Below, in pieces: positions 4,274 to 22,063 of a stretch of 24,000 nt of DNA. Under the pieces are notes generated by a model, which had not been told where the DNA came from, made no database searches, and saw only the letters and a program-made list of their open reading frames with translations. Source of the stretch: Clostridia bacterium (lineage in GTDB: Bacteria; Bacillota; Clostridia; Christensenellales; UBA1242); the NCBI GenBank assembly GCA_017478185.1, contig JAFVEA010000009.1, forward strand, positions 235,858 through 259,857, written 5' to 3'. A program made the position numbers and the translations under genes. Each line of letters starts with the position of its first letter. The stretch's first letter is position 1.

Positions 4274-4798
4274 ATGGAATCAAATCAAAGGAAGCTGTTA
4301 AGCAATTTTTTAATTAGTGGAACAGCGGTTATTGTGTTTTCACTTTTAGATGCGATAAAACTTGTTATTTATTTTGTTGTGGATCCAATGTGGCGTTTTG
4401 TGATTGAAGATATTTTTAACACAAATCAAGAGCTTGCGTGGATAAACTTTTTGCTAATTTTTGGTTTCACTATTATTGAAGCTATTTTGGGCTGTTTTGT
4501 TGGATTTTCAGCTAGAGCCGAGGCAAGAGGAAAAAGGCGTAATATTTTTTATGTGGTTGTTGCAATAATTACAGCTGTGGTTTTGGGAATTAGCTCGATT
4601 TTCGCGATAATTCAAGCATTTTTATATGAAATATCAGCATTATCAATTATTGAGGCATTTATTTCTGCAGGATTTAGTTTTGTTGTTGTTTATGCTCTTG
4701 TTGATATTATAATTTGCTCCTTAAAAATTAGGAAGTTAAAAAAACAGGATAATGGCTCTAAAAATGATAACAAACAAAAAAACGAGGAGGTGATGTAG
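4274..4798 (+). CDS. Hypothetical integral membrane protein (about 4 TM helices, Lys/Asn/Asp-rich C-terminal tail)
   Basis: ATG at 4274 follows AAAGGAGAAA. The track start at 4226 lies inside the promoter. Four long hydrophobic segments. The stop is 2 nt before the next gene's start. I recognise no family. Confidence 0.75.
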   Translation: MESNQRKLLSNFLISGTAVIVFSLLDAIKLVIYFVVDPMWRFVIEDIFNTNQELAWINFLLIFGFTIIEAILGCFVGFSARAEARGKRRNIFYVVVAIITAVVLGISSIFAIIQAFLYEISALSIIEAFISAGFSFVVVYALVDIIICSLKIRKLKKQDNGSKNDNKQKNEEVM

Positions 4799-4800
4799 TA

Positions 4801-5958
4801 GTGCAAGAAGATTTCCATTATTATGCAACTTATTGTGCGGCATATATAGCAGGTTATAATCATGAGGATTGTTTAAAAATTTGTTATGGCGCTCAACTTG
4901 TTGATTTGTGTTCAAAAACTTTTTTAACAAAAATTGGCGGACCAACACAAGCTGCAACAACGCAACTTTCACTTGAAATGATGGACATAAGAAAAGATGT
5001 TTTAGGACTTCAAGAAATAACTCGTATTTGGGCTTCTTTTCATTTTTTGCCATATGACCTAAATAGGACGCCAGATAAAAAGGTTCCCAAAAAATATTTG
5101 TATAAATATCGCCTTATTTGTGACACAAACAGTGACCTTTTGGTTGATACAATAAATTTAGCAAAAGACAAAGGGCTAGAGGCAATTGGGCTTTCAGTTC
5201 ATATTTTGGCAGACACTTGGGCACATCGTTATTTTGCTGGCACTCCTTCTTTGGTTATAAACAGTCCAAGCGGGTTTGTGGAACTTGTTGAGGGCAAAAA
5301 TGGCCTAGAAGAAAGAAAATTAAAGTTTAGAAACAGTCCTTTTAAGCCAGATGACCTCAAAAAGAATATTTTCACATGCAGTATGCTTCAAGCAGATGAA
5401 AATGCCATAATGAATCTTGGGCATGGCAGAGCTGGGCATTTGCCTGATTATGGTTTTATGCGCTATAAATATATGCCCGCATGGAAAAATTATGAAGAAA
5501 TAATAAAAGATAACCCAAAAGATTATTATAATGCTTTTTGCCAAATGGTTTATGCATTCAAGTTTTTTAGGGGTGAGATAAAATCATTTAAAAAGAATAC
5601 ATATGCTTTTGAAGATGTTGAAAAATATAAAGAAAGGATAAATAATATTTTAAAAGTAAGAAGGCTTAGTATGAGCGAAGATTGGAAGGCTTTTGGAGAG
5701 ATGCTTTCTAATGAAAAAATAGAAAGCTTTAAACTGTTTAAGTATGAAAAAGAATATGTTCAATCTAGTGAAAAAAGCAATACATATTTGGGAAGATTTA
5801 TTTTGGCTGCCCTTGCTCAAAAAAGTATGGTAACAAACAGAATTTATAAATCAAAAAATCCACTTGCTGGGATTTCTGTTGATTATGAAAAAAACGGGTT
5901 AAAGGGTATGAAAGAATACTTTGCTCTTTTAAAAACAATTAAAGGAGGCGAAAAATGA
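4801..5958 (+). CDS. Hypothetical His-rich soluble protein, possible metal-dependent hydrolase (zinc phospholipase C / P1-nuclease-like motif pattern)
   Basis: 385 aa. GTG start 10 nt after GAGGAGG. Conserved-looking motifs: DFHYYATY at the N-terminus, WASFHFLP, HILADTWAHRYFAG, LGHGRAGHLPDYG. The pattern resembles a widespread uncharacterised family (I believe Pfam DUF6765; this is from memory and unverified). Confidence 0.8.
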   Translation: MQEDFHYYATYCAAYIAGYNHEDCLKICYGAQLVDLCSKTFLTKIGGPTQAATTQLSLEMMDIRKDVLGLQEITRIWASFHFLPYDLNRTPDKKVPKKYLYKYRLICDTNSDLLVDTINLAKDKGLEAIGLSVHILADTWAHRYFAGTPSLVINSPSGFVELVEGKNGLEERKLKFRNSPFKPDDLKKNIFTCSMLQADENAIMNLGHGRAGHLPDYGFMRYKYMPAWKNYEEIIKDNPKDYYNAFCQMVYAFKFFRGEIKSFKKNTYAFEDVEKYKERINNILKVRRLSMSEDWKAFGEMLSNEKIESFKLFKYEKEYVQSSEKSNTYLGRFILAALAQKSMVTNRIYKSKNPLAGISVDYEKNGLKGMKEYFALLKTIKGGEK

Positions 5959-6485
5959 ACACTTTGAAAAAAACTTTTAGTATCATTTGGGCTTTGCTTG
6001 TTTTGATGATTTCATACTTTATGATAACTGACCCAGAAGTTGGGCATGTTGTTATTGTTTTTGTTATTGGTTTTGGACTTATTTTAAAAGGCATAAAGTA
6101 TTTATATTTTTATTTTAAAATGGCAAAATATATGGTTGGTGGAAAAGGCATATTTTATTATGGAATTATATACTTAAACTTGGGAATATTCACCTCAACT
6201 TTGTTTGATATTCAGCATATTTATATAATGATTTATTTGCTTGGAATGTATCTATTTTGGGGATTTATATCAATTATGCGTGCTCTAGAAATGAAAAAAA
6301 TGGAATCACACTGGAAAATGAAAATGATTGAAGGTGTTGGATATTTTGTTATTGCCGTTTTGGGGATTGTTTTTATAAATTCTGTTATGGCAGCGTCAAT
6401 TATTTATTGTGTTGGCTTAATGTATTCTGCAGTTATGAGGATTATTGCAAATTTTCGCCAAACTGCCATTGTTTATATACAATAA
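5955..6485 (+). CDS. Hypothetical integral membrane protein (5-6 TM helices; loosely HdeD/DUF308-like)
   Basis: 176 aa. ATGA overlap with the upstream gene, strong SD AAAGGAGG. Almost entirely hydrophobic helices. Confidence 0.8.
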   Translation: MNTLKKTFSIIWALLVLMISYFMITDPEVGHVVIVFVIGFGLILKGIKYLYFYFKMAKYMVGGKGIFYYGIIYLNLGIFTSTLFDIQHIYIMIYLLGMYLFWGFISIMRALEMKKMESHWKMKMIEGVGYFVIAVLGIVFINSVMAASIIYCVGLMYSAVMRIIANFRQTAIVYIQ

Positions 6486-6795: not shown

Positions 6796-7710
6796 ATGTT
6801 AGAAGGAATTTTGCCAGATAGAATTTCACGGGCATTAAATGAACTCAATCCAAAAGGTTTAAGAGAAATAAGAATAAGAGTTAAAATGCCAATTATGATA
6901 GACTATGGAACAAACTTTTATTTGGGTGAAAACGGCATTGTTGACAGTTCGGAATATGCTTTAAGTTGTTCATTTGAAGAAATGCAAGACATTGTTTTTA
7001 AGGCTTGTGAATGTTCTGTTTATGCTCACAACGAAGAACTTAAGCTTGGATTTGTAACTTTAACAAATGGGCAGAGAATTGGAATATGCGGTGAAGTTAT
7101 AACTGAAAATGGCATAATAAAAACGATAAAAAATTTTTCTTCCATAAACATAAGAATTCCTCATCAAGTTGCAAATTGTTCACTAAAAGCTCTTCCTTAT
7201 CTTTTTGATGATAATGGAGTTTTTAACACTTTGATAATAGCTCCGCCGGGGGCGGGAAAAACCACTTTTTTGCGAGATTTGTGTTTTCAGCTTTCAAACA
7301 AAAATATTGAAAAAAACTTACTTTTAATTGATGAGCGAAATGAAATTGCAAATTTGGTTAACGGAAAGCCTTCGTTTTTTGTTGGAAATGTTGATGTTTA
7401 TTCTTATGCAAGCAAAAAATTTGGATTAGAAAACGGAATAAGAACACTTTGCCCGTCTGCTGTTTTGATGGATGAGCTTGGAAAAGAAGAAGATATTTTG
7501 GCTTTAAATTATGCAATAGGTTCTGGGGTAAAAATAATTGCAACAGCACACGCCACAAACTTAAATGATTTGTTTTTAAAACCTTCTTTTAAAAACTTGC
7601 TATCTTTAAGGGTTTTTAAAAGATTTGTTGTTTTGTCTAACAGAAATGGAACGGGAACTTTTGAAGGGGTTTTTAATGCCGACAAAATTTGTGTGAGCGA
7701 AAGGATTTAA
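6796..7710 (+). CDS. spoIIIAA: Stage III sporulation protein AA (AAA-type ATPase)
   Basis: 304 aa. Walker A APPGAGKTT and Walker B AVLMDELG. GGGGAG SD. First gene of an eight-gene spoIIIA-like operon. Confidence 0.9.
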   Translation: MLEGILPDRISRALNELNPKGLREIRIRVKMPIMIDYGTNFYLGENGIVDSSEYALSCSFEEMQDIVFKACECSVYAHNEELKLGFVTLTNGQRIGICGEVITENGIIKTIKNFSSINIRIPHQVANCSLKALPYLFDDNGVFNTLIIAPPGAGKTTFLRDLCFQLSNKNIEKNLLLIDERNEIANLVNGKPSFFVGNVDVYSYASKKFGLENGIRTLCPSAVLMDELGKEEDILALNYAIGSGVKIIATAHATNLNDLFLKPSFKNLLSLRVFKRFVVLSNRNGTGTFEGVFNADKICVSERI

Positions 7711-7711
7711 A

Positions 7712-8179
7712 ATGAAGCTTTTTGTTGTTATTTTAATAAGTTTGTTTATTATTTTGATAGGATATCTTTATTTTAGAAAAACGCACAAAAAAATACAGTT
7801 TTATAATGATTTTTTAAGTTTTTGCGAAGAAATTGAAACAGAAATAGGCTTTTTTCAAAATAATATAAAAAACATTTTAGATAAACAAAATTATAAATCC
7901 AGTTTTCAAGAATTATTAAATAACTTTAAAAACAAAACACTTCAAAAGTTTTTAAATGAGCAAAATTTTTTAACGCAAAATGAGCAAACAGAGATATTTT
8001 TGTTTTTTCAAAAACTGGGCAGAGCAAACAGTGAAACAGAGATAAAAGAAATACAAAATTATAAAGAAAAATTAAAGAATAAAATAAACAATTTAACAAA
8101 TTTTGAATTTAAAAAAAGCAAACTAAAATTTAATCTTACAATTTGTTTTTCGATGTTTGTTTTTATTATTTTGTTGTAG
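7712..8179 (+). CDS. spoIIIAB: Stage III sporulation protein AB
   Basis: 155 aa, with an N-terminal and a C-terminal TM segment. Called from size and its position between AA and AC. Confidence 0.8.
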   Translation: MKLFVVILISLFIILIGYLYFRKTHKKIQFYNDFLSFCEEIETEIGFFQNNIKNILDKQNYKSSFQELLNNFKNKTLQKFLNEQNFLTQNEQTEIFLFFQKLGRANSETEIKEIQNYKEKLKNKINNLTNFEFKKSKLKFNLTICFSMFVFIILL

Positions 8180-8186
8180 GTGAAAA

Positions 8187-8384
8187 ATGGATGTTGAAGT
8201 AATTTTAAAAATTGCTGGAATTGGAGTTTTGGTTTCTGTTATTTGCCAAATTTTAAAACAATCTGGCAAAGAAGAAATTGCAACTTTGGTGAGCTTATCA
8301 GGACTAATTGTTGTTCTTGCGATGATTGTTGATATGATAAGTGGTTTGTTTGAAAGTGTTGGACATCTTTTTTATTTGTTTTAA
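8187..8384 (+). CDS. spoIIIAC: Stage III sporulation protein AC
   Basis: 65 aa, two TM helices. ILKIAGIGVLVSVICQILKQSGKEE matches the typical SpoIIIAC N-terminus. Confidence 0.9.
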   Translation: MDVEVILKIAGIGVLVSVICQILKQSGKEEIATLVSLSGLIVVLAMIVDMISGLFESVGHLFYLF

Positions 8385-8399
8385 CGGTGGTGAAAAGTT

Positions 8400-8789
8400 T
8401 TGGAAATCATCTTTAAGATTATTGGAATAAGTTTAATAACAACAATAAGCATATTGTTAATAAAGCCAACAAAGCCCGACATAGCAATGATTGTGGGTTT
8501 AGCGGGTGGTGTTTTTGTCTTTTTTTACATAATAGACCTAATTGAGGATGTTTTTGGGCTTTTTAATTATATTATGGAAATAACAAATCTTGATTCAAAA
8601 CTTTTTACCATTTTAATCAAAATGATTGGAGTTGGTTATATAACTGAATTTAGTGCCAATTTATGCAAAGATAGCGGAAACTTAGCGATGGCAGGCAAGC
8701 TTCTTTTGGCAGGCAAACTTGTTATTTTTGTTATGGCAATTCCAATAATAACCTCACTAATTGAGTTAATTGTGAGTATAATGCCATGA
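8400..8789 (+). CDS. spoIIIAD: Stage III sporulation protein AD
   Basis: 129 aa. TTG start after GGTGGTGA. MEIIFKIIGISLI... and GYITEFSANLCKDSGNLAMAGKL are typical SpoIIIAD features. Confidence 0.9.
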   Translation: MEIIFKIIGISLITTISILLIKPTKPDIAMIVGLAGGVFVFFYIIDLIEDVFGLFNYIMEITNLDSKLFTILIKMIGVGYITEFSANLCKDSGNLAMAGKLLLAGKLVIFVMAIPIITSLIELIVSIMP

Positions 8790-9985
8790 AAAGTAAGATT
8801 ATTTTTGTTTTTTTGCTGTTTTTAATGATTTTTTGGGTGCCAACAGCTTCAACTGTTTTTGCCACTGAAAATGATGAAGAAAAGCAAGAAGACATACAAA
8901 AAGAATTGGAAGATGCCACTTTTGAGCAGCTAAATAGCGTTGACTTTTCAAAGCTTCAAGATATTTTAAATGATTTGGATGAAAACAGTAAAAAAGCGTT
9001 TGGTTCTAATAGTTTTTTAGACAAAACACAAAAAATTTTAAATGGTGATTTTCAAAATGATTATCAAAGTTTTTTTGGTGCTTTGTTTTCCACTTTTTTT
9101 AGTGATATTTTAAAGTTTTTGCCTCTTTTAATAACAATAGTTATAATAACTGTTTTATGCAATATTATAGGAAGTTTTAAAAGCAGTGTTTCACAAAATG
9201 GAGTGTCTCAAATAATAAATTTTGTTTGCTTTGGTGTTGCTTCTTTAATTATTATTTCAGTTGTTGTGTCACTTTTTGGAACGGTTAAAAGCTCGTTAAA
9301 AACAATGCAGACAGAAATGAACATAATTTTTCCTATTTTGTTAACTTGCCTTGCAAGCGTTGGAGGGAGCGTTTCAGTTGGAATATTTCAGCCAGTTGTG
9401 GCAATACTCGCTAACATTGTTGTTAATGTTTTTGTGTTTGTTGTTATGCCAATTTTTGTTTTTATGTTTGTTTTAAACATAATCAACAATTTTTCAGATT
9501 CAATAAAACTAAACAAATTAATTTCTTTTTTGTCTAGTGCACTGAAATGGATTTGTGGAATTTCGTTTAGCGTGTTTTTAGGAGCTATATCTCTTCAGGG
9601 GATTGTTGCGGGGAGTTTTGACAGTGTTTCAATAAAAGCCACAAAATTTGCATTAAAAAGTTATGTGCCAATTTTGGGAGGTTATTTATCTGACGGGTTT
9701 AATATTGCAATGGCAGGAAGTGTTTTAATAAAAAACGCAGTGGGGGTTTCTGGAATTTTGCTTATTTGCTCAAGTGTTATAATTCCAATTATAAGCATAA
9801 TTTGTTTTATGCTTTTGTTAAAATTAACAGCGGGGATTTTAGAGCCAATAGGTGATAGCACTATACCCAATTTTTTGTATCAAGTTTCAAAAACTTTAAG
9901 CCTTTTAATTATGATTGTTTTGGGTGTTTTGTTTATGTTTGTGATAACTGTTGGATTAATTTTATGTATGGCAAACATAGTTTAA
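8786..9985 (+). CDS. spoIIIAE: Stage III sporulation protein AE
   Basis: 399 aa. Signal-like N-terminus, then a polytopic membrane domain. ATGA overlap with AD. Size and position fit. Confidence 0.9.
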   Translation: MKSKIIFVFLLFLMIFWVPTASTVFATENDEEKQEDIQKELEDATFEQLNSVDFSKLQDILNDLDENSKKAFGSNSFLDKTQKILNGDFQNDYQSFFGALFSTFFSDILKFLPLLITIVIITVLCNIIGSFKSSVSQNGVSQIINFVCFGVASLIIISVVVSLFGTVKSSLKTMQTEMNIIFPILLTCLASVGGSVSVGIFQPVVAILANIVVNVFVFVVMPIFVFMFVLNIINNFSDSIKLNKLISFLSSALKWICGISFSVFLGAISLQGIVAGSFDSVSIKATKFALKSYVPILGGYLSDGFNIAMAGSVLIKNAVGVSGILLICSSVIIPIISIICFMLLLKLTAGILEPIGDSTIPNFLYQVSKTLSLLIMIVLGVLFMFVITVGLILCMANIV

Positions 9986-10477
9986 ATGAGGTTGGATATG
10001 AGTGAAGTTTCAGGTTATTTGTTAAGCGTTGTTGGAGTTGTTTTGTTTTCTATTGTTTTAGACTTAATATTAAGCGATGGAACAACAAAAAAGTATATTA
10101 AAAGCATTATGTCTTTAATACTCATTTTTGTTTTGGTTAGCCCGCTCCCAAAAATAATTAAAAATGATTTAGATTTTTCTTTTATAAATAGCTCAGTAAA
10201 ATTAAATGAAGAATATCAAAATGTTGTTTTTGAGCAACAAAAAAATCAAACGGAAAAAGATTTAGAAAAGTTTCTTTTTAATGAAGGATTTAAAAACATA
10301 AAAATAACAATTTGGGCAGATAACTTAAATGGCTTTAAGATTAACACTATTTTTGTCGATTTAACAGGTTTGGTTCTAGCAGAAAAAAATCAGCATATAA
10401 ATAAATATGAGGCTATAAAAATCTTGCTTATAAAACAAACTGGAATTAAAGAGGAGCAGGTGATTTTTAATGATTAA
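9986..10477 (+). CDS. spoIIIAF: Stage III sporulation protein AF
   Basis: Two N-terminal TM helices plus a soluble domain; called from position in the operon. The ATG at 9998 (GAGG 6 nt upstream) is an equally likely or better start. Confidence 0.8.
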   Translation: MRLDMSEVSGYLLSVVGVVLFSIVLDLILSDGTTKKYIKSIMSLILIFVLVSPLPKIIKNDLDFSFINSSVKLNEEYQNVVFEQQKNQTEKDLEKFLFNEGFKNIKITIWADNLNGFKINTIFVDLTGLVLAEKNQHINKYEAIKILLIKQTGIKEEQVIFND

Positions 10478-11045
10478 GTTTGATTTTTTAAATAAGTTTA
10501 AGTGGTTTCAAAAATTAAAAAGCATAAAACACATAAAGCTAATTCTTGTTTTGTTTTTAACTGTTTTAATAATATTTATTTACTTTTATGATTTTAAATC
10601 CACTTCAAAAACTTCAAAAAACGTAACACAAACTTCAGGCAGTTCCTCAACTTCAGTTTATGCCAAAGAACTTGAGCAAAGGTTAGAAAACACTTTGTCA
10701 AAAATCAGTGGAGCTGGAGAAGTTAAAGTTATGATAACTTTTAATGGAGTAACAGAACTTGTTCTTGCCAATCAAAAAGATGAAAAAACAACCTCAACAA
10801 AAAATTCAACATCAAGTGGGACAAATGAATCAGAAACAACAACAGTTAGCACGGAGCCAATTTTAATAACTGAAAATGGGGCAACAAATCCAATTGTTTT
10901 AATGGAAATTTTGCCAGAGATAAAAGGAGTTATTGTTGTTGCACAAGGGGCAGACAACATAAGAGTTAAGTTAGACTTATTAAAAGCCGTGCAGGCACTG
11001 CTTTTGGTTGAATCAAATCAAGTGGAAATTTTTAAAGGAAATTAA
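10470..11045 (+). CDS. spoIIIAG: Stage III sporulation protein AG
   Basis: 191 aa. N-terminal TM, Ser/Thr-rich insert, GAGEVKVMITF... and EIKGVIVVAQGADN blocks typical of the SpoIIIAG ring-building domain. Confidence 0.8.
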   Translation: MIKFDFLNKFKWFQKLKSIKHIKLILVLFLTVLIIFIYFYDFKSTSKTSKNVTQTSGSSSTSVYAKELEQRLENTLSKISGAGEVKVMITFNGVTELVLANQKDEKTTSTKNSTSSGTNESETTTVSTEPILITENGATNPIVLMEILPEIKGVIVVAQGADNIRVKLDLLKAVQALLLVESNQVEIFKGN

Positions 11046-11059
11046 AAGGAGAATTTATT

Positions 11060-11542
11060 ATGTTTACTAAAAAAAAGAAAATAATAGTTTTAACATCAAT
11101 GGTGGCGCTACTTGTTTTAACTGGATTTTTAAATTTAACACTAAATCAACAAGCAATTTCAACAACATCAACACAAACTGTGCAAACATCATCTCAAAGC
11201 TTTTTTGAGGCTTACAGAATTGATAGAAACACAGCAAGAGAACAACAATCACTTTATTATAAAGCAATAATTGAAAGCGAAAACTCAACACAAGAAGCAA
11301 AACAAGAAGCACAAACAAATTTAAATTTAATGGCATCAAAACAAGAACAAGAACTTGTTTTAGAAAGTTATATTTTGGCAAAAGGCTTTAATGATGCAGT
11401 GGTGTCTTTTACGGATAACTATGTTAATGTTATGGTTAAAGGAGCTGAGCTAACCGAAGCTCAAGTGGCTCAAATTGTTGAAGTTGTTCAACAGCAAACT
11501 TCAAAATCTATAGATAATATAAAAATTATACCCGTTGAATAG
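11060..11542 (+). CDS. spoIIIAH: Stage III sporulation protein AH
   Basis: 160 aa. N-terminal TM. FFEAYRIDRNTAREQQ resembles the SpoIIIAH FF..aRl.Re motif. Last gene of the operon. Confidence 0.75.
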   Translation: MFTKKKKIIVLTSMVALLVLTGFLNLTLNQQAISTTSTQTVQTSSQSFFEAYRIDRNTAREQQSLYYKAIIESENSTQEAKQEAQTNLNLMASKQEQELVLESYILAKGFNDAVVSFTDNYVNVMVKGAELTEAQVAQIVEVVQQQTSKSIDNIKIIPVE

Positions 11543-13841: not shown

Positions 13842-14444
13842 ATGCGGGCAGAACAAAACGAGCAAAACATAGAAGTTTTATCTAACAAAAACACAAAGCA
13901 TAAATTTAGTGGAAAATTATGGTATTTAGAACTGTTTTTTTCCTCTCTTTTTTTGTGTTTTATGTTTGCAATCATATCTCAATTAACTTTATTAAATTCT
14001 GGTTTAGCGCTGGCACTTTTTTTGGTTTTGGTGTTGATTTTTGTTTCTGTTTTGTTTGATATAATAGGCGTTGCAGTTGCTGCCAGCAACATAAAACCAT
14101 TTTTAGAACTTAAAAAAGCAGGAAAAACAAAAGGCGTTAATATGGCAATAAAAATGGTGAAAAATGCCGATAGAGTGTCTTCAATTTGCACTGATGTTGT
14201 TGGAGATATTTGCAGCATTGTTAGTGGCGCAAGCGGTGTGGCAATTTCAATTATAATAATATCAGAACTTCCAAGCATAAGCAGTGCAGTTTTATCCACT
14301 TTGATTAGCTCGTTTATTGCCGCCCTAACTGTTTTGGGGAAAGCTGTGGGCAAATCATTTGCGTTAAATTCTTCAACAAAAATTTTGTTGTTTTTTGGCA
14401 AGATTTTAGAATTTTTTAGTTTTAAAAAAAATAAAAAAAATTAA
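13842..14444 (+). CDS. Hypothetical membrane protein (tentatively CNNM/DUF21-like transmembrane pattern)
   Basis: 200 aa, with 3-4 hydrophobic helices flanking a Lys-rich loop (LELKKAGKTKGVNMAIKMVKNADRV). No SD. The ATG lies 6 nt after a TATAAT (13831-13836). The family call is a weak impression only. Confidence 0.7.
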   Translation: MRAEQNEQNIEVLSNKNTKHKFSGKLWYLELFFSSLFLCFMFAIISQLTLLNSGLALALFLVLVLIFVSVLFDIIGVAVAASNIKPFLELKKAGKTKGVNMAIKMVKNADRVSSICTDVVGDICSIVSGASGVAISIIIISELPSISSAVLSTLISSFIAALTVLGKAVGKSFALNSSTKILLFFGKILEFFSFKKNKKN

Positions 14445-14475
14445 AGCAATCATAAAAAATTGATTGCTTTTTTTG
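14443..14475 (+). terminator. Rho-independent terminator
   Basis: Perfect 10-bp stem AAAGCAATCA / TGATTGCTTT, 8-nt loop, T5 tail. Confidence 0.8.
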
Positions 14476-14512
14476 TTCATTTGTTCTATAATAAAAATTA
14501 GAACAAATGTTT
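14464..14512 (+). promoter_or_regulatory. recN promoter with a LexA (Cheo-box)-like operator
   Basis: -35 TTGCTT (14464-14469), 17-nt spacer, -10 TATAAT (14487-14492). GAACAAATGTTT (14501-14512) fits GAAC-RNRY-GTTY. A perfect 11-bp inverted repeat CATTTGTTCTA (14478-14488) / TAGAACAAATG (14499-14509) brackets the -10. Confidence 0.55.
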
Positions 14513-14525
14513 GAGGTGAATTTTT

Positions 14526-16190
14526 ATGATAACAAAATTAAGAATACAAAATTTTGCACTAATTGAAGATTTAACTTTAAATTTAACAAACAATTTGGTT
14601 GTTTTTAGCGGAGAAACTGGGTCTGGAAAATCTATTATAATAAATGCAATAAATTTTTTGATAGGAGAGCGGGCCGACAAAACTTTTATTCGAAATGAAA
14701 GTGATTTTATGCAAGTTGATGGAATTTTTAAGATAAGTGAAAAAGCTAAAAAAATCTGTGAAAATTTTGGAATAAAAGCGGATGATGAGCTTTTAATTAC
14801 AAGAAAAATTTCATTAGATGGCAAGTCTGAAGCAAGGGCAAATGGTGAGATTATAACAATATCTATGTTAAAACAAATAACAGAAGCTTTGGTTGATGTT
14901 TGTGGTCAGCATCAAAATCAAAGTTTGTTAAATCCTTTAAACCACCTAACTTTTTTGGATGAATATAATTACCCACAAAGCCTAAATGATTTAAAAAAAG
15001 TTATTCAAAACCTAAAAATTGTTCATCAAAATCTTAAAAAATTTGGTGGTGATGATGCTTCAAGAGAGCGAGAAAAAGATATTTTAAATTTTGAACTTAG
15101 TGAATTAGAAAATGCTGAAATTGTTGAAGGCGAAGATGAAATTCTCCAAGAAAAACAAAAATTATTTCAGCACACTCAAAAATTGCTGGAGGCAATAAGT
15201 TTGGCAAGTGCTTGTTTAAGCGGTGATGACAACTTTTCTGTTGATAATTGCTTGTATGGCGCAATAAAAAACTTAAATTCAGTTATAAATATTGATAAAA
15301 ACATAGAAAATGAGTATAACAGATTAAATTCAGTTCAAATTGAGTTAAGTGACATAAAACAAAGTTTAGAAGATGTATTAAATGGTTATGATTTTAGTGA
15401 AGAAGAGTTTTTAAGGGTGGAAAACAGACTTTCACTTTTAAAAAACATAAAAAGGAAGTATGGTGGCAGTTTAAGTGAGGCTTTAAATTATCAAAAAAGC
15501 TTAAAAGAAAAGTTGTATTTTTTAGAAAATAGCGAACAAGAAATTAAAAAATTAACAGAAGAAAAAAATGATTTAACAAAAAAAGCTTATGATTTGTGTG
15601 AAAAAATAACAAAACACAGAAAAACTATTGCAAAAATTTTTGAACAAAAAATAAAAGAAGAATTATCCACTCTTGGAATGGAAGAAGCAAAACTTGTTGT
15701 TGATTTTAAACAAAAAGAGATTTTTGATGAAAATGGCATTGATGAAATAAATTTTATGTTTTCAGCCAACATAGGAGAACCCCTAAAGCCTTTAACAAAA
15801 GTTATTTCAGGTGGAGAAATGTCTAGATTTATGCTTGCTTTTAAAACTGTTTTGGGGAACAAAAACAGCACACCAACCCTTTTGTTTGATGAAATAGACA
15901 GCGGAATTGGTGGCGAAACTGGTTATATGGTTGGCCTAAAGCTTAAAAGTTTGGCAAAAAATGCTCAAGTTATTGTTGTAACACACCTAGCTAGCATTGG
16001 TGCTATGGCAGACAAGCATTTTAAAGTTTTTAAAACTCTTAAAACAAGCAGAACAATCACAAATGTTTTAGAGCTAACAGAACAAGAAAAATTAACTGAA
16101 ATAGCTCGGCTTGCGGGTGGGTTTGAAGGAGATTTTGCAAAGGATTATGCAAAAAAGCTAAAATTAAAAGTTGGCCAGTTAAGCGCTTAA
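14526..16190 (+). CDS. recN: DNA repair protein RecN
   Basis: 554 aa. N-terminus LRIQNFALIEDLTLNL, Walker A GETGSGKS, long coiled-coil middle, signature SGGEMSRFMLA, Walker B LLFDEIDSGIGG. Confidence 0.95.
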   Translation: MITKLRIQNFALIEDLTLNLTNNLVVFSGETGSGKSIIINAINFLIGERADKTFIRNESDFMQVDGIFKISEKAKKICENFGIKADDELLITRKISLDGKSEARANGEIITISMLKQITEALVDVCGQHQNQSLLNPLNHLTFLDEYNYPQSLNDLKKVIQNLKIVHQNLKKFGGDDASREREKDILNFELSELENAEIVEGEDEILQEKQKLFQHTQKLLEAISLASACLSGDDNFSVDNCLYGAIKNLNSVINIDKNIENEYNRLNSVQIELSDIKQSLEDVLNGYDFSEEEFLRVENRLSLLKNIKRKYGGSLSEALNYQKSLKEKLYFLENSEQEIKKLTEEKNDLTKKAYDLCEKITKHRKTIAKIFEQKIKEELSTLGMEEAKLVVDFKQKEIFDENGIDEINFMFSANIGEPLKPLTKVISGGEMSRFMLAFKTVLGNKNSTPTLLFDEIDSGIGGETGYMVGLKLKSLAKNAQVIVVTHLASIGAMADKHFKVFKTLKTSRTITNVLELTEQEKLTEIARLAGGFEGDFAKDYAKKLKLKVGQLSA

Positions 16191-16260
16191 TTAAATATTT
16201 TTTACATACATATTTTTATATTATTTAAAAAGACTATATTCTATGGGAGTATGGTCTTTT

Positions 16261-17301
16261 ATGTTTGAAAAAATAAAAAATTCAATGTTAAAATTTTTGT
16301 TTATTACTTTTTTAATGTTTTATTTTTTAAATCCGCAAGCGTCTATTAAGGAGTGTTTTTCGGCCACTTCACAACAAATGGTTTCAAAAGTGATTTTGGG
16401 TGGGGAAAGTGTTGGTTTTGAATATTTTGGTGATGGAGTTTTGGTGGTTTCAAACAATAGAGTTTTGTTGGCAGAAAGTTACATAAACAACATAAACAAC
16501 TTGGTTTTAACTGGTGGGGATATAATAAAAAGCATAAATGACCAAAATGTTTTTAATTCAAAACAAATATCAGACATTTTAAATGGTCAAGATGCTGGAA
16601 AAGAAGTTAAAATAGATTTTATTCGAAATGGAAAAGTTTGTCAAACTTTTTTAAATCCAGAATATGATGTTTTTGCAAAAAAATTTAAATTGGGCGTTTG
16701 GGTTAAAGATGAAATAAGTGGGGTTGGAACATTAACATACATAAATCCTAAAACAGGTTATTTTGGAGCACTTGGGCATCCAATAACAACAAACACTGGT
16801 CAAAAACTTGGGGTTAAATCTGGAACAATTTATAATTGTGATATTGTTGATATAGCAAAAGGTTCAAAAGGGGTTCCAGGGGAACTTAAAGGAGTTATAT
16901 CCAGAGATAAAGCCATTGGTTCAGTTCACAAAAACAGTGATTTTGGAGTTTTTGGAACAATAAAAGACAAAAAGATGTTATCAAGACAAAATCTTGTTGA
17001 TATTGGTGGAAAAAACACCATAAAACCAGGTAAGGCAACAATGTTTTCTTGTGTTGATAATAATGAAGTTAAGGGATATGAGATACAAATTATTAAAACA
17101 AGTTATCAATCAGTTTCAAATGATAAAAGTTTTGTTATAAAAGTTGTTGATGAAAATTTAATTAAAAAAACTGGTGGAATAGTTCAAGGTATGAGCGGAA
17201 GCCCCATAGTTCAAAATGGAAAGCTTGTTGGAGCTGTTACGCATGTTTTTACCAATGATGCAACAAAGGGTTTTGGAATTTATATAGACTGGATGTTATG
17301 A
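16261..17301 (+). CDS. spoIVB: SpoIVB signalling peptidase (S55 family)
   Basis: N-terminal TM, PDZ-like segment (GDIIKSINDQNV), GIGTLTY-type motif (GVGTLTYINP), catalytic-Ser motif GMSGSPIV. The ATG at 16261 has GGGAG 11 nt upstream; the track start at 16243 is less likely. Confidence 0.9.
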   Translation: MFEKIKNSMLKFLFITFLMFYFLNPQASIKECFSATSQQMVSKVILGGESVGFEYFGDGVLVVSNNRVLLAESYINNINNLVLTGGDIIKSINDQNVFNSKQISDILNGQDAGKEVKIDFIRNGKVCQTFLNPEYDVFAKKFKLGVWVKDEISGVGTLTYINPKTGYFGALGHPITTNTGQKLGVKSGTIYNCDIVDIAKGSKGVPGELKGVISRDKAIGSVHKNSDFGVFGTIKDKKMLSRQNLVDIGGKNTIKPGKATMFSCVDNNEVKGYEIQIIKTSYQSVSNDKSFVIKVVDENLIKKTGGIVQGMSGSPIVQNGKLVGAVTHVFTNDATKGFGIYIDWML

Positions 17302-17307
17302 TTTTTG

Positions 17308-17348
17308 TAAAATATTTTAAAATATTGTTGATTATTTTAAAATATTGT
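17308..17348 (+). repeat. Phased AT-rich direct repeats in the spo0A promoter region
   Basis: ATTTTAAAATATTGT occurs at 17314-17328 and 17334-17348. The core TAAAATATT occurs at 17308, 17318 and 17338 (spacing 10 and 20 bp). Confidence 0.7.
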
Positions 17349-17356
17349 GCTATACT
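17328..17356 (+). promoter_or_regulatory. Sigma-A-type promoter of spo0A
   Basis: -35 TTGATT (17328-17333), 17-nt spacer, extended -10 TGCTATACT (17348-17356). GGGGGA SD at 17376-17381. Confidence 0.5.
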
Positions 17357-17391
17357 CAAAACAGAAAGCAAAATCGGGGGATGTAAAAAGT

Positions 17392-18075
17392 ATGTATGGC
17401 ATATACTATTCAGAAGAAAATGAATTTATAAATTCTAATTTAAAAATACTGCTAGACAAAAATGATATTTGTTTGGATTATACAAACAAAATAAATGAAT
17501 TACTCAAAAAAGTGTTAAATTTTAGACCTAATTTAATATTTTTGCAATTTAAAACAAAAGAATTTAAAAAATTATTTTATGATATTTTTTCAAAAGAATC
17601 TATGTTTTATATGCCGTATGTTTTCATTATTGATGAAAATTCTTGCAAAAGCCAAAATGGAGAGAGCTTGGAAGAGGTTTTAGAAAAAATAAAATATCCA
17701 AAAATGGAAAATATAAATAAAAATATACCAATAAATATTTTAAAAAATTTAAACACTTTATTGGTTGGGATGGGCTTTTCAGCAAAAAACAGAGGATTAA
17801 TATTTTTGAAAGATGCTATAAAATATTATGTTTTTTCTTCAACAGAAAAAGATATAACAATAACAAAAGTTTTGGATTATGTTTCAAAAATTCATAAAAC
17901 AAATGTTGAAAATGTTGAACGAAGCATACGAGTTGCGATAAATGTTGCTTGGGCAAAAATCAAGCCAAAAGAAGCAAGCGCTTTTTCTGGGGTTGATGAA
18001 ATTTATTTTTTAACAAAGCCCACAACAAAACAATTTATTATTGATATTAGTGATATATTGCTTTCAAAAGCTTAA
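17392..18075 (+). CDS. spo0A: Spo0A-like sporulation master regulator with a degenerate (pseudo-)receiver domain
   Basis: The C-terminal domain is collinear with the Spo0A effector domain (ITKVLDYVSKIHKTNVENVERSIRVAINVAW ... KPTTKQFI). The gene lies directly after spoIVB, as in Bacillus and Clostridium. The start at 17392 is supported by the SD and by the promoter overlapping the track start at 17347. Receiver anomalies are described in the findings. Confidence 0.8.
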   Translation: MYGIYYSEENEFINSNLKILLDKNDICLDYTNKINELLKKVLNFRPNLIFLQFKTKEFKKLFYDIFSKESMFYMPYVFIIDENSCKSQNGESLEEVLEKIKYPKMENINKNIPINILKNLNTLLVGMGFSAKNRGLIFLKDAIKYYVFSSTEKDITITKVLDYVSKIHKTNVENVERSIRVAINVAWAKIKPKEASAFSGVDEIYFLTKPTTKQFIIDISDILLSKA

Positions 18076-18116: not shown

Positions 18117-18755
18117 ATGTCTAAAAACATTTTAAAACGAAACACTTATATAAAATACTCAATCACAGACCATTTTAAAAAATATAAATGGATTTATTTA
18201 ATTTTGTTTATTTGCTTGATTTTAGGTTTAATTTTGGGCTTTGTTGTTGGGTTTAAAAGGGCAGATAATTTTTCTTTAAGTGATTTGCCAGATAGCAGTT
18301 TGGTTGATTTTATAAACAAAAAAATTTCAGCGGCTTCTTTGTTTTTTTCTAGAATTTGTTCATTTTTTGGACTAATTTTTTTGTTTTGGTGCATAAATTG
18401 TAAGAAATTTTTAAGTTTTATAACTTTTATAATTGTTTTTTATAGGGCTTTTTTAATAGGTATAAATTGTGCCATTTTAATGTTTATTTATAAGTTTGGT
18501 GGAGCAATCAATGTTTTTTTGGTTATTTTGCCAACGCATCTAATTGCACTTGTTTTGTTGCTTTGTTTTGGCGCTGTTTGCGCTTATTTTGCATTTAATG
18601 AAAAAAATATTGGCTATGGCACATTTAGTGGTTATTTTTTTAGAGAAGCAAAAGCGGTTTTGTTTACCGTGGTTGTTGGTGCAATTTTGTGTTATCTCTT
18701 TGAAGCTTTGCTTCTTCCGCACATATCTTCAGCAATATTTATTGGAATAAACTAA
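18117..18755 (+). CDS. spoIIM: Stage II sporulation protein M-like membrane protein
   Basis: 212 aa, about 5 TM helices. The layout and motifs (ILPTHLIAL resembling VLPQNLIII; C-terminal LFEALLLP resembling LFEAYVSP) match B. subtilis SpoIIM as I remember it. No SD before the ATG. Confidence 0.6.
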   Translation: MSKNILKRNTYIKYSITDHFKKYKWIYLILFICLILGLILGFVVGFKRADNFSLSDLPDSSLVDFINKKISAASLFFSRICSFFGLIFLFWCINCKKFLSFITFIIVFYRAFLIGINCAILMFIYKFGGAINVFLVILPTHLIALVLLLCFGAVCAYFAFNEKNIGYGTFSGYFFREAKAVLFTVVVGAILCYLFEALLLPHISSAIFIGIN

Positions 18756-20354: not shown

Positions 20355-20374
20355 AAATTTATGTGGAGAAATAC

Positions 20375-21151
20375 ATGGAATTAAAAATTGAAAAATTATC
20401 ACCAAATGAATGTGCAAATATAATAACATGCTTTTTAGATGGTGGAAGTTGGGAAAACGATGTAAGAAAAAATTTATTGCCAGACCTTTCTAACAATCCA
20501 ACAAAAACAGAAATTTCAAAACTTATTAAGAAAAAATATGAGTTAAACGAAAAAAACTATGAGGAAAACATTGAAAAGTTTTTGGAGTGGTGGGAAAGCG
20601 ATGGGAATTTTGATTATCAAGAACTTTTAAGCCTTATGGAAACCAAAGGGCCTAAAAACAGAGAATCAATCACTTGGCAAGTTGGAGATACATTTATTTG
20701 TCCAAGAGATATAGAAGAATGGTCTTTTGTTATGTCCGCAAGTTTTTGGAAATGGGATGCAATAAATGTTTCACTTCATGAAATAACGCACTTTGTTTGG
20801 TTTGAAAAAGTTAAACAAATTGAGGGGATTAAGCACTTTAGCCAAAATCAAGAAGATGAAACCTATTTACCATATTGGCTTTTAAGTGAAATTGTTATTG
20901 ATCCAATTTTAAATTCGAGCACATTTGCAAAAAAATATGAGATGACATGGAAATCCTATCCAGAGTTTTATGATATAAAAATCAAAAATAAAAATTTGAT
21001 GAAATATATAAAAACATTGTGGAATGAACGACAAAATTTTGATGATTTTTATGAAAAAAGCAGTAAGTTTGTTTATGGTAATTGGCGAGAAATAAATAAA
21101 CAGTATTTAAATAATTTCAACAATCAAAATGTAGAAGAGTTGCAAAAATAA
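20375..21151 (+). CDS. Hypothetical protein with an HExxH zincin-type motif (putative metallopeptidase)
   Basis: 258 aa from the ATG at 20375 (GGAG 5-6 nt upstream). Single HExxH (LHEITHFVW). No signal peptide or TM helix. Family not recognised. Confidence 0.75.
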   Translation: MELKIEKLSPNECANIITCFLDGGSWENDVRKNLLPDLSNNPTKTEISKLIKKKYELNEKNYEENIEKFLEWWESDGNFDYQELLSLMETKGPKNRESITWQVGDTFICPRDIEEWSFVMSASFWKWDAINVSLHEITHFVWFEKVKQIEGIKHFSQNQEDETYLPYWLLSEIVIDPILNSSTFAKKYEMTWKSYPEFYDIKIKNKNLMKYIKTLWNERQNFDDFYEKSSKFVYGNWREINKQYLNNFNNQNVEELQK

Positions 21152-21186
21152 CTCAACTTTAAAAAGTCCAGTGCTCATACATTCTA

Positions 21187-21214
21187 AAAGTCCGATAACC
21201 ACGGGCTTTTTTTG
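21187..21214 (+). terminator. Rho-independent terminator
   Basis: AAAAGTCCG / CGGGCTTTT stem (one G-U pair) followed by a T-run. Confidence 0.65.
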
Positions 21215-21242
21215 TTTTTAAAATAAGACAAATAGAAATTTT

Positions 21243-21253
21243 TATGATATAAT
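21243..21253 (+). promoter_or_regulatory. Extended -10 promoter word TATGATATAAT
   Basis: Identical 11-mer, 19 nt upstream of the ATG at 21272. Confidence 0.45.
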
Positions 21254-21271
21254 AAAAACGGAGTATATATT

Positions 21272-22063
21272 ATGTTTAAGTTTTTTAAAAATAGTAATAA
21301 AAAGGCAATAGAAAGTTATTATACTGTTCATAATCTATCAAAAGCACAGAAATTGTGTACTGGAAAGGGTGTAAAAATTGGAATAATAGATTGGCTTTTT
21401 GGAAATGAAAAAGACCAATTGTATTCAGGGTTTTATGATCCGACAGAAATGGGATTTTTAGACAACAAAGAACATGGTTATGCTATGGCAAGCACTCTTA
21501 AAGAGATTGCACGCGATTGTCAAATTTATGCTATCAATGGCATAACAAAAGGATGTTTAGATGATGATATGCTAAGGGTAAAATTTTTACAAAAAGCTGT
21601 AAATTACGCTATTGAGAATAATATTCAAATTTTAACATATTCTCACAAACCGATAGTAGATGAAGACGCAATAAAAGAACTGCAAAAAATTTTAGACTTT
21701 GCAGAGAAAAATGACGTTTTAACTATCTTTTTGCATTGTAATCTAAAAAATAATATTATGCCTGTTGCCATTGGTTCAAAAATAGAGAATGAGATAGCTG
21801 AAATTTTTTATATTTATCAATATAATTATAATTCATTAAATCCTATTGCGTATAAAAAATGGTTAGACAGCAAAAAAACAGATCAAACCTGTTTTTTATC
21901 ATGGTCATCAATGACTCCAGTTTTGGCGGGGTTTGTTGCGTTACTACTTGAGCAAAAACCAGAATTAACAAAAAAAGAGATTATACAATTATTAAACAAA
22001 ACTTCTAAAAACAAAATTCCAAATATTTTGGAAGCAGTAAACCTACTGAAAACTAATTACTAA
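21272..22063 (+). CDS. Small subtilisin-like (S8) serine peptidase, no signal peptide or propeptide
   Basis: 263 aa. The Asp (GVKIGIIDW), His (KEHGYAMAS) and Ser (SWSSMTPVLAGFVALLLE) motifs occur in subtilisin order and spacing. GGAG SD. Confidence 0.8.
   Translation: MFKFFKNSNKKAIESYYTVHNLSKAQKLCTGKGVKIGIIDWLFGNEKDQLYSGFYDPTEMGFLDNKEHGYAMASTLKEIARDCQIYAINGITKGCLDDDMLRVKFLQKAVNYAIENNIQILTYSHKPIVDEDAIKELQKILDFAEKNDVLTIFLHCNLKNNIMPVAIGSKIENEIAEIFYIYQYNYNSLNPIAYKKWLDSKKTDQTCFLSWSSMTPVLAGFVALLLEQKPELTKKEIIQLLNKTSKNKIPNILEAVNLLKTNY

Follow-up and report, generated by a model that had tools for sequence, protein, structure and literature searches.

The DNA analysed here, a window of 24,000 nucleotides (nt) from a Clostridia bacterium contig (JAFVEA010000009.1, positions 235,858 to 259,857 of the forward strand), carries at 17392-18075 (+ strand) a gene which, judged by its synteny, is the spo0A orthologue of an uncultured rumen/gut Clostridia lineage of low guanine-plus-cytosine (GC) content. 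Its product joins a Spo0A DNA-binding half to an N-terminal domain that we read, from profile alignments and a structural model, as a receiver-derived, reduced pseudo-receiver without the phospho-acceptor Asp. A phosphorylation-independent Spo0A orthologue is our best reading of these data, with a probability of roughly 0.6, and spore formation in this lineage is probably switched on other than by the textbook kinase signal.

The N-terminal domain

The putative pseudo-receiver covers amino acids (aa) 1-112 (17392-17727, + strand) and its ancestry is supported by profile-profile alignment, an AlphaFold model and fold matches. Alignment with hhalign of the protein and its divergent relatives (the clade described below) against canonical Spo0A is collinear over residues 3-227 (probability 99.8%, E-value 1.3e-28), and the N-domains taken separately still align with canonical Spo0A receivers at an E-value of 1.8e-4. 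The B. subtilis numbering used here (D10, D11, D56, T86 and K108) was verified through PDB 9phz, the solved B. subtilis Spo0A receiver, which our canonical reference P0051 matches with an E-value of 3e-38. In both profile-profile alignments E8/E9 (codons 17413-17418, + strand) take the place of the Mg2+-binding acidic pair D10/D11, Gln52 (CAA, 17545-17547, + strand) that of the phospho-acceptor D56 and Asp81 (GAT, 17632-17634, + strand), at the end of β4, that of the conserved Thr/Ser (T86 in B. subtilis). An 18-residue gap after S87, present in the clade alignment as well as in the profile-profile alignment, takes out α4/β5 together with the conserved Lys; the deletion junction lies between codons S87 and Q88 (17653-17654, + strand). 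The intact Spo0A set of phospho-acceptor, acidic pair, Thr and Lys is absent from the protein. The stretch from β4 to α5 is 12 residues long here, whereas relatives have about 26 and canonical Spo0A has 30, and a second gap shortens the interdomain linker by approximately 13 residues, so that the shortfall of approximately 40 residues relative to canonical Spo0A is shared between deletion and linker.

A previous sequence-only reading of this stretch had proposed that the acidic pair was changed from Asp-Asp to Glu-Glu and the acceptor from Asp to Gln, and the profile alignment that it suggested as a check bears out both, with no Asp at the acceptor position. Its further check, conservation of the Gln in relatives, gave the same answer: two more species, at 88% and 76% identity, have a protein of the same length, with the same deletion and with Q52 kept, so that Q52 is invariant in the three closest species. 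The proposed change of Thr to Asp stands insofar as D81 does align with T86; the residue itself is not conserved, the two sister species having Glu and Asn instead. At the end of the domain the earlier reading has to be revised. It had taken the N-terminal domain as collinear in length with a receiver and paired IKYPKMEN with ILKPFDMEN of B. subtilis, but the 18 residues after S87 are missing, residues 88-107 (IKYPKMEN included) correspond in the alignment to α5 and to the beginning of the linker, and residues 93-101 are helical in the AlphaFold model. The linker, which had been estimated to be about 30 aa shorter, is indeed shorter, though by approximately 13 residues, 18 more having been lost with α4/β5. 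The equivalence of K101 with the conserved Lys, which that pairing implies, is contradicted by the clade alignment, by the profile-profile alignment and by the secondary structure of the model.

The AlphaFold model has a predicted local distance difference test score (pLDDT) of 85.9 at full length and of 88.5 for the N-domain alone. It places β1 at residues 2-7, α1 at 15-23, β2 at 27-31, α2 at 34-44, β3 at 48-52, α3 at 56-65 and β4 at 76-81, followed by a two-residue turn, a short strand (84-87) and a helix (93-101). The best PDB fold matches of the N-domain model are all receivers, namely the receiver (REC) domain of NtrC4 (template modelling score 0.56), BaeR, Spo0F, KdpE, DivK and the CikA pseudo-receiver, and these matches, which come from Foldseek only, are weak (E-values 0.02-0.2). 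Family models do not recognise the domain: the protein has no Pfam match to Response_reg (PF00072) even at E<=1, an NCBIfam scan of the N-domain returned no match, and in a profile search of the PDB its receiver matches were non-significant (E-values 0.3-1.2). Given that the Asp, the Thr, the Lys and the α4-β5 switch/dimerisation element are all lost, canonical His-Asp phosphotransfer to this protein is very unlikely.

The effector domain and the identity of the gene

Sequence and fold matches alike indicate that the C-terminal half is a normal Spo0A DNA-binding/activation domain (17755-18054, + strand), in agreement with the sequence-only reading. Spo0A_C (PF08769) is the sole Pfam family matched by the protein (55.1 bits against a cutoff of 25, E-value 8.2e-15, residues 122-221), and the domain also matches PDB 1fc3/1lq1 by sequence (phmmer E-value 3e-9) and by fold (Foldseek E-value 1e-4). 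Within it, the recognition-helix motif VERSIRVAINVAW (aa 175-187) retains the core VER-IR-AI--AW, both in the alignment to PDB 1fc3/1lq1 and in the profile-profile alignment.

The open reading frame containing the gene extends over 17347-18075, with translation starting at the ATG at 17392 and yielding 227 aa plus the stop codon, as had been proposed from the sequence. We regard this start as real because a ribosome-binding site, GGGGGA (17376-17381, + strand), precedes the ATG by 10 nt (GGGG is kept in relatives), because all spo0A-like homologues share the N-terminus M-x-x-[IV]-Y-Y, and because a 5′ extension of the frame to a GTG would run into the candidate promoter described below. The product is publicly annotated by NCBI as "hypothetical protein" (MBR1925874.1, from a Clostridia bacterium metagenome-assembled genome), a label explained by its score with TIGR02875, the NCBIfam Spo0A equivalog model, which reaches 40.5 bits against a cutoff of 200 and matches the effector region only.

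Synteny at the spo0A locus

The gene spoIVB (16243-17301, + strand; TIGR02860 312 bits, above cutoff; Peptidase_S55 E-value 2e-76) lies directly 5′ of the spo0A-like gene and is itself preceded by recN (14526-16190, + strand; TIGR00634 472 bits); the order recN-spoIVB-spo0A is found in the window and in its relatives. We take the B. subtilis map, spoIIIA...nusB...xseAB...recN-spoIVB-spo0A, to be the ancestral arrangement. The same gene block surrounds homologues with only 22-33% identity (loci L002-L005, whose GTDB genomes bear the titles uncultured Clostridia or Christensenella sp.; L014, which holds P0009; and L016, which holds P0033), and it is because of this deep synteny that the gene can be called the positional spo0A, a designation already given in the sequence-only reading from the adjacency to spoIVB. 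In NCBI the relatives are labelled Clostridia or Christensenella.

Other sporulation genes are found around it. A gene for a spoIIM-like membrane protein (18117-18755, + strand), with a weak match to TIGR02831 (E-value 1.8e-6, below cutoff), lies 3′ of the spo0A-like gene and does so in the sampled clade loci as well, spoVAC/D/E and yunB are found shortly 3′ of the locus in L008 and L014, and the spoIIIAA-AH operon (6796-11542, + strand) shows that sporulation machinery is retained in the window.

Selection and the spoIVB-spo0A intergenic region

Ratios of non-synonymous to synonymous substitution (dN/dS, Nei-Gojobori) were computed between three species, all with Q52, at synonymous divergences (dS) of 0.23-0.9. 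The spo0A-like gene gave 0.14-0.25 for the N-domain and 0.19-0.21 for the effector domain, next to 0.15-0.16 for recN, 0.14-0.20 for spoIVB and 0.11-0.14 for the spoIIM-like gene. Since the N-domain is under purifying selection it is not a decaying one. The presence of Q52 in all three species indicates that the Asp-to-Gln change is older than their split, and the low ratios of the neighbouring genes indicate that purifying selection on sporulation genes persisted after it.

A consensus scan of the intergenic region returned a candidate sigma-A-type promoter (TTGATT, 17-nt spacer, (TGc)TATACT) at 17328-17356 (+ strand). Between spoIVB and spo0A the segment 17314-17356 is nearly invariant in the three species, against a divergence of 30-90% at their synonymous sites. 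The same region holds ATTTTAAAATATTGT twice, at 17314-17328 and 17334-17348, as a direct repeat of 15 bp that could be an operator.

A clade of divergent Spo0A proteins

An exhaustive search of 1.84 billion representative proteins with a hidden Markov model (HMM) gave 296 matches at E<=1e-3, 16 of them below 1e-10, and the best were full-length relatives of approximately 260 aa. After alignment of 152 retrieved proteins to HMMs of divergent and canonical N-domains, 39 divergent full-length members were placed in an unbootstrapped neighbour-joining tree, where they form a deep clade of 39 clusters at 50% identity, made up of metagenome-derived members only and with spoIVB adjacent in those sampled. 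The finding, by these alignments, extends beyond one odd gene to a whole clade in which positional Spo0A orthologues carry degenerate receivers.

The acceptor column of this clade holds Asp in 28 of the 39 members and another residue in 11: Gln in the trio that includes the window, Glu in P0011 and P0017, Pro in P0012 and P0068, Lys in P0009, Ser in P0086 and P0014, and Asn in P0069. On the unbootstrapped tree this corresponds to about seven independent losses, an approximate count. Both positions of the acidic pair are acidic in just 6/39 members, many having Lys-Lys or Asn-Lys; Thr/Ser is found at its conserved position in approximately 8/39 and the Lys is sporadic. None of the 22 members tested has a Pfam Response_reg match. 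What the clade does conserve in its N-domain is a set of positions of its own, among them Y5, L37, P46 and the motif S70-x-F72-x-x-P75. From these columns the Mg2+-binding pocket appears to have degenerated across the whole clade, and the acceptor Asp appears to have become dispensable in several of its branches. Tentatively, and with somewhat more doubt than belief, we would extend the argument to the entire uncultured gut/rumen Clostridia clade (at least 39 clusters), which may have uncoupled Spo0A from His-Asp phosphotransfer while still sporulating in response to another input, be it the abundance of the regulator, a partner protein or a ligand that acts on the remodelled N-domain.

Spo0A_C proteins with an Asn, Glu or Ser acceptor were also found outside this group (P0034, P0037, P0044, P0056, P0072, P0104, P0117 and P0141). 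Their receivers score 18-152 bits with the canonical Spo0A-receiver HMM, above noise, and P0044 (locus L015), which has a precomputed Pfam Response_reg match, lies beside capsule-synthesis genes and not beside spoIVB. Because P0044 is not linked to spoIVB, the group (P0044, P0056, P0072 and the others), once considered as further Asp-less orthologues, was set aside as probable paralogues; at least some of these proteins are, by their acceptor residues, aspartate-less Spo0A-like paralogues. An effector-only Spo0A_C match was found as well, at 6001-6312 of locus L007 (segment 3693-6312 of the locus, which comes from a Candidatus Gallispira edinburgensis contig), about 0.9 kb 3′ of a gene resembling N-acetylmuramoyl-L-alanine amidase (4293-5147); we take this locus to be phage-like, and it is consistent with the truncated spo0A that PMC10294663 describes from phages.

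Proposed mechanism and alternative explanations

Phosphorylation of canonical Spo0A lifts the inhibition exerted by the receiver and drives dimerisation. The protein described here would instead be active without phosphorylation, its output being set by the amount of protein, a possibility in keeping with the conserved promoter, and/or by a partner protein or ligand working through the conserved N-domain, which may also act as a constitutive dimerisation module. A continued role in sporulation would be expected of it. There are precedents for this proposal: the sad67 receiver-domain mutation makes B. subtilis Spo0A constitutively active (PMC4689505), and receivers lacking the aspartate occur widely in other families of response regulators (PMC4395418, PMC12632262).

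Several observations weigh against it. E8/E9 are retained and are invariant in the three closest species, from which it follows that a metal or ligand may still bind at the old pocket. Asp is kept by those 28 of the 39 clade members, which is left unexplained if the clade as a whole is phosphorylation-independent. A scan of the window for 0A-boxes (TGNCGAA) returned 5 sites against 4.9 expected, none of them 5′ of the spo0A-like gene. The genomes of the clade are known from metagenome assemblies only, and a second canonical spo0A may be present elsewhere, or kinases may act by another route.

Of the competing explanations, the one that survives best is a relic or repurposed regulator, in which sporulation has been lost or is not started by this protein, the gene having escaped phospho-control and being kept for another role, for example stationary-phase regulation. 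The degenerate active site of the receiver throughout the clade, with its repeated losses of the Asp, would suit such a fate, as would the score of 40 bits against 200 with the Spo0A equivalog model, the lack of enrichment of 0A-box motifs in the window, and a clade with no cultured member or known spore phenotype. This explanation does not sit well with an intact spoIIIA operon, spoIVB and spoIIM-like gene, nor with intact spoVAC/D/E and yunB in sister genomes, and in the very species that carry Q52 spoIVB and the spoIIM-like gene are selected as strongly as recN. We consider it unlikely.

Non-canonical phospho-regulation, by a Hanks-type kinase acting on Ser/Thr/Tyr or at another acidic residue, or else metal or ligand binding at the E8/E9 pocket, would account for the purifying selection on the N-domain, which implies that the domain does something. 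Candidate residues are at hand, E8, E9, N10 and E11 along with Y5, Y6, S7, T31, T55, S67 and S70 being invariant in the three closest species. Against this, the surroundings of the pocket contain no conserved Asp (the sister species have other residues in place of D81), the conservation of E8/E9 does not extend to the wider clade, and deletion has removed the α4-β5 element, which in receivers relays the phosphorylation signal, so that we judge this route quite unlikely.

That the gene is a divergent paralogue, with a canonical spo0A elsewhere in the genome, has some precedent in the metagenomic Spo0A_C proteins found off the spoIVB locus, such as P0044 beside its capsule genes, and in phage-borne effector-only copies (L007; PMC10294663). 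We give it little credence: the gene lies immediately after spoIVB, in the ancestral spo0A slot of a long syntenic block, clade members sampled at 22-33% identity occupy the same slot, and a displaced canonical copy would be required in every such lineage. Lastly, a sequencing, assembly or gene-calling artefact within 17392-17700, which the sequence-only reading had named among its possible refutations, is already refuted and has practically no probability left, since at least three independent assemblies (NCBI MBR1925874.1, 540 kb; the two ENA samples ERZ28654714, 311 kb, and ERZ27256832; and Logan SRR12529323) yield the identical protein, two other species have equal length and Q52, and the codon-level substitutions show the pattern of a selected gene. 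The phosphorylation-independent orthologue is the reading that we retain.

Comparison with known regulators

Canonical Spo0A (B. subtilis, G. stearothermophilus, C. difficile; TIGR02875, REC plus Spo0A_C) has in common with the protein its effector domain, fold and two-domain order, the slot after recN-spoIVB, the recognition-helix core and homology of profiles from end to end. It differs in that the receiver here is unrecognisable to Pfam and NCBIfam, with Gln as acceptor, Thr changed to Asp, α4/β5 and the Lys deleted and a linker approximately 13 residues shorter.

Pseudo-receiver response regulators include HP1043/HsrA, GlnR, RitR and Streptomyces WhiI. ChxR is a further named response regulator with an aspartate-less receiver (PMC4395418). 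The likeness to such proteins lies in a DNA-binding output coupled to a domain without the phospho-acceptor, putatively of REC-derived fold, in repeated origins within response-regulator families and in a presumed phosphorylation-independent activity. Their outputs, however, are of OmpR, NarL or other type, whereas here the output is Spo0A_C, and the domain is further reduced, with no α4, with β5 displaced or absent, and undetected by PF00072. On these features we class the protein as a putative pseudo-receiver response regulator of the Spo0A family.

Two further cases bear comparison. Phage-encoded truncated spo0A (PMC10294663) likewise has a Spo0A effector domain free of phospho-control by a receiver, but the phage copies have no N-domain and lie in phage genomes, whereas here a selected N-domain and the chromosomal slot are kept. 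Constitutive alleles of the sad67 type (PMC4689505) also gain Spo0A activity without the phosphorelay through a change in the receiver, as would the present protein; such laboratory alleles were engineered or selected in an otherwise normal Spo0A, while the present condition occurs in nature, has become fixed in several species and goes together with a loss of catalytic residues. A limited full-text search of the literature turned up neither a chromosomal spo0A orthologue described as having a dead (Asp-less) receiver nor an aspartate-less receiver with a Spo0A_C output at a spo0A locus, in line with the sequence-only reading, whose author knew of none for Spo0A.

Other features of the neighbourhood

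The window has a low GC content (26-37%) and all of its large genes lie on the + strand. From its left end the order is V-type ATPase A/B/D, two unknown genes, spoIIIAA-AH, asp23, nusB and xseA (with xseB), followed by a 200-aa membrane protein, recN, spoIVB, the spo0A-like gene, the spoIIM-like gene and a PBP5-type D,D-carboxypeptidase. An Rfam scan of the window returned no RNA family. To the left of the window the contig flank holds the V-ATPase operon only, and between that operon and spoIIIAA the segment 4801-6485 (+ strand) encodes a DUF6765 protein (385 aa, E-value 5e-69) and a DUF308 membrane protein.

The 200-aa multi-pass membrane protein (13842-14444, + strand) has a weak CNNM/DUF21 match below cutoff and was assigned to no family. 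It is by a wide margin the most conserved gene of the neighbourhood, with 92-98% aa identity and a dN/dS of 0.02-0.06, compared with 76-92% identity for the other neighbourhood genes of the same species. It is found between xseB and recN in the window and in L008, L010, L012 and L013, and open reading frames of similar size occupy this position in L002-L005. Relatives, like B. subtilis, have argR/ahrC (approximately 151 aa) in the interval from the membrane protein to recN, called from Arg_repressor domains in L014 (4608-5063) and from matching open reading frame size in L002-L005; in the window (14445-14525) and in two sister species (L008, L010) the interval is without it. Farther right, 20363-22063 (+ strand) encodes two proteins of approximately 262 aa without a family, the second marginally matching subtilases at their C-terminal end (E-value 1e-4), and a phage-type integrase lies on the contig just past the right end of the window (L012, 18231-19613).

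Implications for sporulation in Clostridia

Spo0A~P has been called the universal trigger of endospore formation, for example in PMC11115286. Work on the start of sporulation in Clostridia centres on the kinases and phosphotransfer proteins that feed Spo0A (PMC6136694, PMC11210211), and a Spo0A that can be phosphorylated is taken for granted in reviews and surveys of how sporulation begins (PMC6136694, PMC11210211, bioRxiv 10.1101/2022.02.25.481979). Equivalog models miss Spo0A proteins such as those described here, so marker-based sporulation predictors may score these gut lineages as spo0A-negative. If the tentative extension to the whole clade is correct, it would constitute an exception to the rule that phosphorylation of Spo0A triggers sporulation in all endospore formers. 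A naturally occurring Spo0A without phosphorylation at the canonical site, kept under selection beside retained sporulation genes, would mean that the decision to sporulate can be wired differently, and would offer a natural system for the roles of receiver domains beyond accepting phosphate.

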